Shown here: positions 7,490 to 9,772 of the stretch, piece after piece
Layout: each line of letters begins with the position of its first letter
How positions within the stretch are numbered: position 1 is the first letter of the stretch
Source of the DNA: Eledone cirrhosa
Lineage: Eukaryota
Length of the DNA: 64,000 nt
Assembly (NCBI GenBank): GCA_964016885.1
Contig: OZ024746.1
Coordinates: forward strand, 26,598,001 to 26,662,000
Reading direction: 5' to 3'
Notes under the pieces: generated by a model
Seen by the model: only the letters and a program-made list of their open reading frames with translations
Databases searched by the model: none
Told to the model about the DNA's origin: nothing
Made by a program: the position numbers and the translations under genes

Positions 7490-9772
7490 TCACATGTATG
7501 ATTTAAGTATTTGTTGAATATGGTTTATATGTTCAAGAAGAGTATGTAGTGTAACCATGGTAAACCATCGATGTTCAATGATTGGAATATCTGTTGGTAC
7601 AAAGAGACTCTCATTCACATCCTCATTGTTTTGGACTTTCGAAGACAACTGAAATATCTGAAAATAAAAGGATATATATCAGGTTAAAATATACTCATAT
7701 AATCTTACATATATATGTATATACAGATATGGTATTAACGCTCTTACGTTAGTTTGAGCTTTATACTTTATACATATGTATTATCAAAGAATTTGCATTA
7801 CTTAAATGTTAGTAGTATAACTCCTATATAAAGTATCTACTGTAGAAACTTCATTTCATTATAGGAAATATCAAATCAATTAACAATGGATATATTATAT
7901 TATCAATACTTACTGGTAAACTTAGTAGAATTTTCAGATCAAATAAGTAATAAACAGTCTGTCTTAGATAACAATAGAATATAGCATCTGATGTTCGTGT
8001 GAGTTTAGAACAAGCAGCTGGGTAGTAACACTGTGCTCCTATACGTGTGGCACGAGCACACAGATTGTCATATTCTCTCTTCACCTGATTCTTCATCACA
8101 ACAACATATTTATTAAGGGTTGTAGACATGTTGAACAGAGACATCTGTAATGAAGAATTGTGAGAAATTATATATTTCAGAATCACTGTCATTTCTATAA
8201 AATGTATTATGAGTTCATGAGACAATAAACATAAGATGTTCAAAGCTAATATATTGTTTTGTCTTAATTTTATGATATTGTGTTAATGATAGAAATATAT
8301 ATATACAAACCTTTAATAAATCAATGTTGTTGACGGTGATATTGTCCTGAATATTCATCTGTGGAAATTTAACATCCATATTGTGGAGTAACTTGTTTAT
8401 AAATTGTGGACAGCTTTTAGCAAACAGCAATGGAGTATTGTTACACTGTAGAAAAATATATAACACTTTATGAGATAGGATGGAGAGTCTGACACATGAT
8501 ATATGGAACAAATTATTTTAATTTAGATTATACTAATATATCTATTATAAATATTCATCTGAGTGAGAAAGTCAGAGTGATAGAGACAGAGAGAGTGAGA
8601 GACAGAGAGAGAGAGAGAGAGGGAGAGAGAGAGAGAGAGAGAGAGAGAGAGAGAGAGCAATTGATAAAGATAGAAAAATAAAGAGAGAAAGAGAGAGAGT
8701 AAGAGAGAGATAGTAAGAAAAGATTGGGAAAAGTAATGAATTCTTAACTTACATAATTAATCAAAGTATTGTTTACGGCTGCTGTGGTTCTTTTTGTTAA
8801 CGTCAATGCCGTATCTATTTCAGTTTTTATATCAGATATATCAGATAATTCAGTTGTTGTTGTTGTAGATTGTATAGGTAATCCATGGATCAATGTCATC
8901 CATGTTGAGAGACATAAAACCAATGTATATTGCCAATCTGGAGGAGAAAAAAAGGTATAAAGATTTTATTAATTAAACAAAGAAATATTTAAACTTTATC
9001 AGTAATTAATACGAGAAATATTTTATTATATTTTAAGAGAAGAATTAGATTCTGGAACATTGATGAATATTTAAATTAGGAATATTGGGGATTTCTACAC
9101 AGAAGCAGGAACTAAATCTTCGCGAAATCATACCCCACTGTGTAAACAAAATTATAGACAGATTTCATAATGAATTTCAAGATAATCAATAACTAAATTG
9201 ATGACGAGATGCTTAGTTATGGAGAGCCTTAGACTATAGTATGGTTGTAGTGTACTACAAAAATAAACAAACAATATTATAAACTCTCATTTAGCAGCAA
9301 CTATATGGTTGTAGAACACTGAATGTCACCTCCCCAACTGTGAACATTCCTCCTACAACACACATAGATAGATAAAATAGAATAATTATAAGAAAAGAAA
9401 GAGAAGATACTGAAGAATAATCATTGGATAAATGGGAAAGTATGTGAAGAAAGACATCTTACGATTAAACACACGATCACATAACTGATGGGGAATGGGT
9501 CATTTACCTGAGATATATATATATATATATATATAATTAATACATTAACTGAGAAAGGCTTAAGCGATACTCTGACCAACTCCATCTCACTCAACAAACA
9601 TTAGGATATACCAATATATATATATATATATATATATGTGTGTGTGTGTGTGTGTGTGTGTGTGTGTGTGTGTGTGTGTGTGTGTGTGTGTGTGTGTGTG
9701 TGTGTGTGTGTGTGTGACAACTCAAACAGTAATATTACAGTGACTATAACATAGAATATTCTACTTACACAT
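7490..9772 (-). CDS. Spliced 5-exon gene, 240-aa secreted protein, candidate long-chain four-helix cytokine (copy 1). Coding exons 9772-9769, 8937-8753, 8445-8311, 8144-7914, 7657-7490
   Basis: Manual splicing: ATGT|gtaagt...ctccag|ATTGG, TAT|gtaagt...ctacag|TGT, AAG|gtttgt...ttacag|ATG, CCA|gtaagt...tttcag|ATA. This gives one open frame: MYWQYTLVLCLSTWMTLIHG-LPIQSTTTTTELSDISDIKTEIDTALTLTKRTTAAVNNTLINY/CNNTPLLFAKSCPQFINKLLHNMDVKFPQMNIQDNITVNNIDLLK/MSLFNMSTTLNKYVVVMKNQVKREYDNLCARATRIGAQCYYPAACSKLTRTSDAIFYCYLRQTVYYLFDLKILLSLP/IFQLSSKVQNNEDVNESLFVPTDIPIIEHRWFTMVTLHTLLEHINHIQQILKSYM*. The gene model is well supported; the cytokine identity is inference. Confidence 0.88.

Follow-up and report, generated by a model that had tools for sequence, protein, structure and literature searches.

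A coleoid cephalopod gene family with a probable long-chain class I cytokine fold, tandemly amplified in Eledone cirrhosa

The 64,000-nucleotide stretch of Eledone cirrhosa DNA analysed here (OZ024746.1; hereafter the window) contains, on its minus strand at positions 7490-9772, a five-exon gene whose product is probably a long-chain class I cytokine that is secreted and signals through a receptor of the Domeless/gp130 type. Homology to cytokines at the level of the fold is very likely, judging from structural models of related proteins. By analogy with the known class, the protein probably signals through a class I receptor, and an immune or inflammatory role has about an even chance. An original prediction made from the letters of the window had proposed such a cytokine; it overlooked that the gene stands in a tandem array of about 31 copies and that databases already contain, under uncharacterised entries, a coleoid family of several members to which it belongs.

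The coding sequence comprises 723 nucleotides encoding 240 residues, with the sole stop at the end; each of the four introns begins with GT and ends with AG, and their phases are 1, 0, 0 and 0. Re-derivation from the window reproduces exactly the five-exon model of the original prediction, with its length, intron phases, canonical splice sites and an exon 1 that codes ATGT only. The six mature cysteines (64, 75, 137, 147, 153 and 166; Cys10 lies in the signal region) and the N-glycan sequons, five in number (residues 57, 65, 98, 113 and 200), are likewise as it described. Its 20-residue signal peptide agrees with the hydropathy of residues 1-20, which are hydrophobic, and with a conserved small residue-X-Pro-Ile pattern at 20-23 (Ile23 in 9/9 aligned rows reaching the position), from which we also predict an N-terminal signal peptide. 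At 240 residues with this predicted signal, the protein falls within the size range of secreted class I cytokines (150-280 residues).

Four public sequencing runs contain the stretch, none recorded as RNA, and three of them (X1, X2 and X4) were aligned. Run X4 provides one 775-nucleotide contig with exact joins at 8753/8445, 8311/8144 and 7914/7657, corresponding to introns 2, 3 and 4, and it covers nothing but exonic sequence and the first part of the 3′ untranslated region. The library type of X4 is not on record, and the splice evidence consists of this single contig at depth 5. Runs X1 and X2 are DNA-like: they cover the introns and lack the joins of introns 2-4. The X4 contig has the Pro139 allele, found in 23 of 28 array copies, and the window copy has Arg139, so the source copy need not be the window gene.

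The junction-read check suggested with the original prediction therefore succeeds for introns 2-4 and leaves the exon 1-2 junction unseen, outside a contig that starts at 8938, on the acceptor G. Since this G is the first base of the contig, a different upstream exon whose last base is G, with a donor-like site at 9903, could take the place of exon 1. Indirect support for exon 1 and intron 1 comes from the paralogues, in which a tiny ATG exon of 4-10 nucleotides precedes a GTAAGT donor, and from database orthologues, which start with Met, two residues and then Tyr. The X4 joins, the full-length homologues and the tiny ATG exon of the paralogues confirm that the gene is real and spliced, not a chance arrangement.

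The window protein aligns over its full length to P0002 of Argonauta hians (56.5%) and P0006 of Octopus sinensis (54.4%). Word-index protein searches found named relatives solely in Octopus and Argonauta (6/31 and 6/132 candidates), and a profile-based word-index search found 5 related proteins among 2966 candidates, one of them nameless. An exhaustive profile search of 1.84 billion proteins produced 22 matches at E <= 0.001. Twenty matched proteins were looked up: six are nameless, and 14 are named, from O. vulgaris, O. sinensis, O. bimaculoides, A. hians and Sepia pharaonis, all annotated as uncharacterised or hypothetical. Named relatives are restricted to coleoid cephalopods, with no bivalve or gastropod protein among the named profile matches; to judge from these sequences, the family is older than the octopus-cuttlefish split. 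Residues E132, C137, A140, P150, C153 and C166 are invariant in 18/18 aligned relatives, and C147 is present in 17/18. A tree of 18 rows, excluding fragments and the fused models P0001 and P0007, contains several octopod subfamilies common to multiple species and places the window copy without support. The two fused O. vulgaris models show repeated exon 3-4 blocks and are probably tandem copies merged by annotation.

Structure was predicted for two relatives, the Argonauta orthologue P0002 and P0027, which is 20% identical to it, and the window protein was mapped onto them by alignment. The AlphaFold2 model of P0002, built with 18 sequences, reaches a predicted local distance difference test score (pLDDT) of 80 and a predicted template modelling score (pTM) of 0.77, with long helices at 27-63, 101-133, 157-179 and 205-231; the P0027 model reaches 81 and 0.78. 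On the window protein, the corresponding helices A to D would span approximately residues 26-66, 104-136, 160-182 and 211-237, the positions assigned to them in the original prediction. As modelled, the helices form the up-up-down-down arrangement with long A-B and C-D crossovers that defines long-chain class I cytokines. The distinctive trait of the family is a B-C loop of about 23 residues with four nearly invariant cysteines.

The models were compared with 48,161 solved chains and the matches Z-scored, and gp130-family cytokines top the search for both relatives, in line with the long-chain four-helix fold originally predicted. For P0002 the best matches are IL-11 (Z 14.9, root-mean-square deviation (rmsd) 2.8, 153 residues aligned), LIF (14.8), IL-6 (14.6), CLCF1 (14.4) and CNTF (14.3). 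The 14 best matches are all long-chain class I cytokines and the 30 best all helical cytokines, and Z has fallen to 7.5 at the first different fold. The P0027 model matches IL-11 and IL-6 equally (both Z 15.9; rmsd 2.3 and 3.0, 151 residues aligned), with the first non-cytokine at rank 29 (Z 7.9). Both models align in chain order to IL-11, IL-6 and LIF over 148-163 residues at rmsd 2.3-3.8, and identity in the structural alignments is 5-17%. In these comparisons of models, it is the Z gap to unrelated bundles that counts and not raw Z. The Foldseek list is the same in kind (LIF, prolactin, G-CSF, IL-27).

In the ESM Atlas, all named neighbours of P0002 and P0011 at 0.90-0.92 are long-chain cytokine clusters (IL-12A, IL-6, G-CSF, prolactin, LIF and CNTF), and the Atlas structure of P0011 compared with cardiotrophin-1 gives template modelling scores of 0.65/0.71. 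A mollusc cluster of 114 members, 11% of them with PF00489 IL6, has a feature score of 0.91-0.92. The top feature neighbour in both searches is an unnamed arthropod cluster (56 members, 230 residues), possibly a further protostome helical cytokine family. Gene layout points the same way. Vertebrate IL-6-type genes have intron phases 1-0-0-0, and the Eledone gene has the same. It also shares the five exons and the first intron inside the signal peptide known for IL-6 (PMC13081863).

In molluscs an IL6R-like receptor, JAK and STAT are present, and BLAST has revealed no ligand (PMC13203501). The same 2026 survey, using BLAST at >=30% identity and listing two octopus species, describes IL-6-family cytokines as vertebrate-only. 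Dome has been placed as sister to LepR and IL6RB, which implies that the receptor predates the protostome-deuterostome split (PMC12284397). In the Eledone genome, STAT DNA-binding-domain exons lie at C8:40.18 Mb. Neither the PF09240 receptor-domain profile nor JAK FERM_F2 gave a match, in an exon-by-exon search that is insensitive and does not imply absence. In the same kind of insensitive search, profiles PF06328, PF09067 and PF25552 gave none at cut-off, with no receptor exon in the five loci read and the other six PF09067 loci unread. The DNA pattern G[YF]WS[DEKN]WS, also an insensitive search, has 31 genome matches, of which 30 were translated and none lies in a fibronectin-like open exon.

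In our reading, the gene product is probably a long-chain class I helical cytokine, secreted and N-glycosylated, from a family specific to coleoids; we hypothesize that infection or wounding induces the gene through a TATA promoter with a kappaB-like site. The protein would mature by signal cleavage at Gly20/Leu21 and disulfide formation, then bind and cluster a Domeless/gp130-type receptor, which would act through JAK on the STAT of this genome; both the clustering and the JAK-STAT activation are modelled on the established class I cytokine pathway (PMC7378365). The 31 near-identical copies would provide more dose per stimulus and not a wider ligand specificity, with diversity supplied by the divergent paralogues.

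The promoter features are consistent with this scheme. The conserved GTAAGTATATAA block contains TATATAA, is common to three of four aligned promoters (it is absent from the C6:10.51 Mb paralogue) and is a probable TATA box. Together with the kappaB-like site upstream, it suggests Rel-driven induction. Some repeats of a minisatellite further upstream read GGGGATTTTC, close to a Rel-binding site; the minisatellite is present in other units too, with a length that differs between them. An excess of kappaB patterns (94 vs 53 expected) was rejected as support, since unit repetition and the minisatellite account for it.

Within the window, a unit of about 12 kb is repeated in tandem, giving five full gene copies. 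Searched against the 3.0-Gb genome of the same species, exon 4 gives 45 matches at the protein level. The array accounts for 31 of them, at 95-100% identity and confined to 395 kb of C6 (28 on the minus strand, 3 on the plus); the others are eight divergent paralogues at 44-66%, four on C4 and four on C6, and six partial remnants on C19. Thirty array loci were taken, and 29/29 rebuilt copies are intact, with exons 2-5, canonical splice sites and no internal stop; in the 30th, exon 2 lies beyond the sequence taken. The 28 copies that share one length represent 25 distinct coding sequences and 18 proteins, and differ on average by 0.9% of the coding sequence. Array variants comprise 22 non-synonymous and 16 synonymous changes (ratio per site 0.40, binomial p 0.006), a comparison made within the array only that takes no account of transition bias or common ancestry. 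Copies so nearly identical suggest a role in dose.

A cytokine-fold protein might instead have been recruited as an exocrine product made in bulk (for saliva, skin mucus or egg coats, or as a pheromone), with the array providing quantity. Such a protein would act on other animals or microbes, or have a structural role, instead of addressing the animal's own JAK-STAT receptor; we regard this as unlikely. The 0.9% mean coding difference over 31 copies would indicate selection for dose, the extra disulfides and five sequons suit a stable secreted product, and the fused O. vulgaris models hint at amplification there too. However, the spliced contig has a depth of just 5 (although contig depth says little about expression), paralogues retain the kappaB-like and TATA elements, and none of six family gene ids is named in the literature searched, mostly without subscription journals. 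Moreover, octopus cytokines do amplify, as the 31-36 tandem IL-17 genes illustrate (PMC8353272).

An array that owes most of its size to the assembly, or that arose by recent neutral amplification of a redundant gene, seems improbable. The copies are indeed very similar, the unit contains mobile-element debris, and the copy number lacks a single-copy depth reference. Yet 25 of the 28 coding sequences are distinct, the spacing varies from 5.5 to 23 kb, 3/31 copies lie in the opposite orientation, a 2.2-kb element occurs in a single unit, stops are absent and amino-acid changes are in deficit. Convergence of an unrelated four-helix bundle on the class I cytokine appearance, which the 5-17% structural identity, the lack of a profile match and a long cysteine-rich B-C loop (to our knowledge not a vertebrate cytokine feature) might suggest, is likewise improbable: with two divergent members, gp130 cytokines score 6-8 Z higher than ferritin-like and designed bundles, in chain-order alignments of 148-163 residues, and independent agreement comes from the signal peptide, the length, the intron phases and the way exons correspond to helices.

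Several observations weigh against the interpretation as a signalling class I cytokine. The fold is read from models of relatives and not of the window protein, and the aligner itself warns that helical bundles may reach Z of about 13-14 without kinship. Foldseek gives nothing at E <= 0.001 (best LIF, 0.015), and the Atlas recognition score is low (1699). No sequence-level tie to vertebrate cytokines was found: the Pfam families IL6, IL11, IL12, LIF_OSM, CNTF, GCSF and Hormone_1 match 0/20 members, 0/7 further scans and 0/4 window exons, and a PDB sequence search returned nothing better than E 0.24.

Further points of this kind concern receptor contact, regulation and copy number. Site III of gp130 cytokines is a hydrophobic hot spot starting helix D, with Trp157 in IL-6 (PMC7378365). 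The equivalent position is approximately Ile212 of the window protein (column I7 T4 V3 F2 M1 S1), in a register obtained by counting back, and is apparently Ile or another non-Trp residue; Arg215 (13/18 relatives) and Trp216 (11/18) follow. The promoter element does not meet the strict kappaB consensus GGGRNWYYCC within 1 mismatch, and the GTAAGTATATAA block could be the donor of an upstream exon instead of a TATA box. The STAT-site pattern occurs 6 times vs 17.7 expected, leaving STAT feedback unsupported, and the AU-rich nonamer was not found in locus L002. Finally, signalling ligands are not usually amplified to 31 near-identical copies.

Table 1. Features of the window, with positions counted from its first nucleotide.
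Feature	Positions	Strand	Basis or remark
Exon 1, ATG + 1 nt; phase-1 intron inside signal peptide	9769..9772 (4 nt)	-	Identical in 5/5 window copies; tiny phase-1 exon in paralogues
Exon 2: predicted signal peptide, Thr run, helix A	8753..8937 (185 nt)	-	Gene model, spliced contig, model mapping
Exon 3: Cys64-Cys75 pair, short A-B helix, long A-B loop, start of helix B	8311..8445 (135 nt)	-	Gene model, spliced contig, model mapping
Exon 4: helix B, four-cysteine B-C loop, helix C; best-conserved part	7914..8144 (231 nt)	-	Alignment of 18 relatives
Exon 5, coding part: long C-D loop, helix D, stop	7490..7657 (168 nt)	-	Gene model, spliced contig, model mapping
3′ untranslated region, beginning; within spliced contig	7435..7489	-	Contig of run X4
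Conserved GTAAGTATATAA block, probable TATA box, ~125 nt before ATG	9890..9903	-	12 invariant bases: window, C4 and C6:12.43 Mb paralogues
KappaB-like element, weak, ~20 nt upstream of TATA block	9923..9931	-	GG-x-ATT core and position in 3/4 paralogue promoters
26-bp minisatellite, 12.7 copies, 1.1-1.5 kb upstream of promoter	11024..11358	.	Some units hold kappaB-like GGGATTTT words
Intact copy 2 (T49A, T67A, K89N)	19509..21793	-	Rebuilt from window
Intact copy 3 (T49A)	31790..34185	-	Rebuilt from window
Copy 4, frame open; C147Y loses conserved B-C loop cysteine (1/28 copies)	43889..46211	-	Rebuilt from window
Intact copy 5 (one Thr fewer, R139P)	60682..63053	-	Rebuilt from window
Inverted remnants of the gene	2813-3350, 14836-15373, 26945-27482, 39585-40122, 55851-56557	+	One per unit

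In the inverted remnants (Table 1), about 90% identical to the gene, an internal deletion of 1.2 kb has brought intron 1 and the beginning of exon 2 directly against the exon 5 acceptor; the resulting 7677/8889 joint is present in the DNA-like runs X1 and X2. Each faces an intact gene and, if transcribed, could yield antisense RNA. Retroelement debris lies within each unit, and the array flanks are rich in mobile elements. Fragments at 4644-5195 and 5454-5944, duplicated along with the unit, and their copies are by motif presumably non-LTR (long terminal repeat) retrotransposon reverse transcriptases; the first has no Pfam match. A 745-residue open frame at 52083-54320 (+), in a 2.2-kb insertion found in a single unit, has no Pfam or PDB sequence match, and we take it to be a Penelope-type element from its reverse transcriptase and GIY-YIG motifs. 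About 40 kb to the right of the array (C6:26.887-26.889 Mb) lie exons of an SNF2-family helicase, a possible synteny marker for molluscs, which we assume to resemble RAD54L2/ARIP4.

Elsewhere in the genome, a second array at C4:128.16-128.23 Mb has four copies, with a 20-kb period, of a 62%-identical paralogue whose stop lies three codons earlier than in the window protein. An inverted pair of near-identical paralogues with a divergent third gene occupies C6:12.41-12.45 Mb, and another paralogue lies at C6:10.51 Mb, adjoined by a 636-residue open frame at C6:10.50 Mb that has no Pfam match and is preceded by what we take for a PAM2-like motif. At C19:9.9237-9.9249 Mb, five tandem fragments of the exon 4 start, with a period of 269-275 bp, form a minisatellite derived from a cytokine exon.

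At somewhat less than even odds, the family both supplies the ligands so far missing for the IL6R/Domeless-type receptors of molluscs and is truly homologous to the vertebrate gp130 cytokines, one member having about 31 dosage copies and a Rel-responsive promoter. Were this the case, the fold and the five-exon 1-0-0-0 gene would date to the last common bilaterian ancestor, invisible to BLAST, and the ~31-copy member would be an interferon-alpha-like burst cytokine. With identity of at most 17% beside a shared fold and gene layout, the family supplies candidate ligands below the 30%-identity BLAST bar, including named, expressible ones such as XP_036359804.1, XP_029637482.2 and XP_036359387.1. 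The origin of gp130-type signalling before the protostome-deuterostome split would become directly testable, and cephalopod immunology and regeneration research would gain a class I cytokine. The 31-copy near-identical array is a separate puzzle on cytokine dose. Structure-led precedents exist for IL-1 (PMC13736523) and lamprey IL-6 (PMC13081863).

Among known systems, the best structural matches are the long four-helix bundles of the gp130 family (IL-6, IL-11, LIF, CNTF, CLCF1, cardiotrophin, IL-27p28) and IL-12p35/IL-23p19. Like the gp130 family, the octopus family has five exons, a signal peptide interrupted by the first intron, and extended A-B and C-D loops, and its proteins are of similar size. 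The two differ in that identity is at most 17%, and the octopus family has six mature cysteines, four of them around the ~23-residue B-C loop, no Trp at the inferred site III, no position beside TOMM7, and a 31-copy array. Cys64 and Cys75 lie where helix A ends and within the A-B loop, presumably like the first disulfide pair of IL-6, and cysteines 137, 147, 153 and 166 lie around the B-C loop. Lamprey and hagfish IL-6 were identified by a four-cysteine pattern and TOMM7 linkage (PMC13081863). An IL-6 orthologue was rejected on both counts: the canonical four-cysteine, two-disulfide pattern is absent, and TOMM7, at C11:31.98 Mb, has no family exon in the surrounding 40 kb, the family being on C6, C4 and C19. 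Loss of this synteny is expected at such evolutionary distance.

G-CSF, prolactin/growth hormone and leptin belong to the same long-chain fold class (Z 8.4-13.0; Foldseek ranks 5-11), but score below the gp130 group and have no sequence match. An interferon or other class II cytokine was rejected: the phases are 1-0-0-0 and not the 0-0-0-0 of interferon introns (10.64898/2026.05.30.728932), and interferons rank 15 or later with Z <=10.3. Among protostomes, the original prediction fairly called such ligands poorly characterised in molluscs, yet an oyster IL-12 p35 homolog is in print (Xin et al. 2021, Dev Comp Immunol 123:104145, cited in PMC12122919). That homolog and the Atlas mollusc cluster are molluscan and apparently of the same fold class, the octopus family being likened to the homolog by description and to the cluster by feature score. 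Drosophila Unpaired 1-3, the Domeless ligands, are protostome ligands of a gp130-like receptor (PMC7378365, PMC13203501); they have no sequence match to the octopus family and are set beside it by description.

As for the array, the mammalian interferon-alpha cluster is likewise a tandem array of a secreted cytokine, but interferons score lower structurally (Z about 10 or less) and have 0-0-0-0 phases. The octopus IL-17 genes, with 23 isoforms (PMC8353272), are also a lineage-specific tandem amplification of a secreted cytokine, of a different fold and with diverse isoforms in place of the ~99% identical copies here. No published cephalopod class I cytokine was found in the literature searched. 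The class itself is already known; what appears new is an unnamed coleoid family within it, with a cysteine-rich B-C loop and a 31-copy array.

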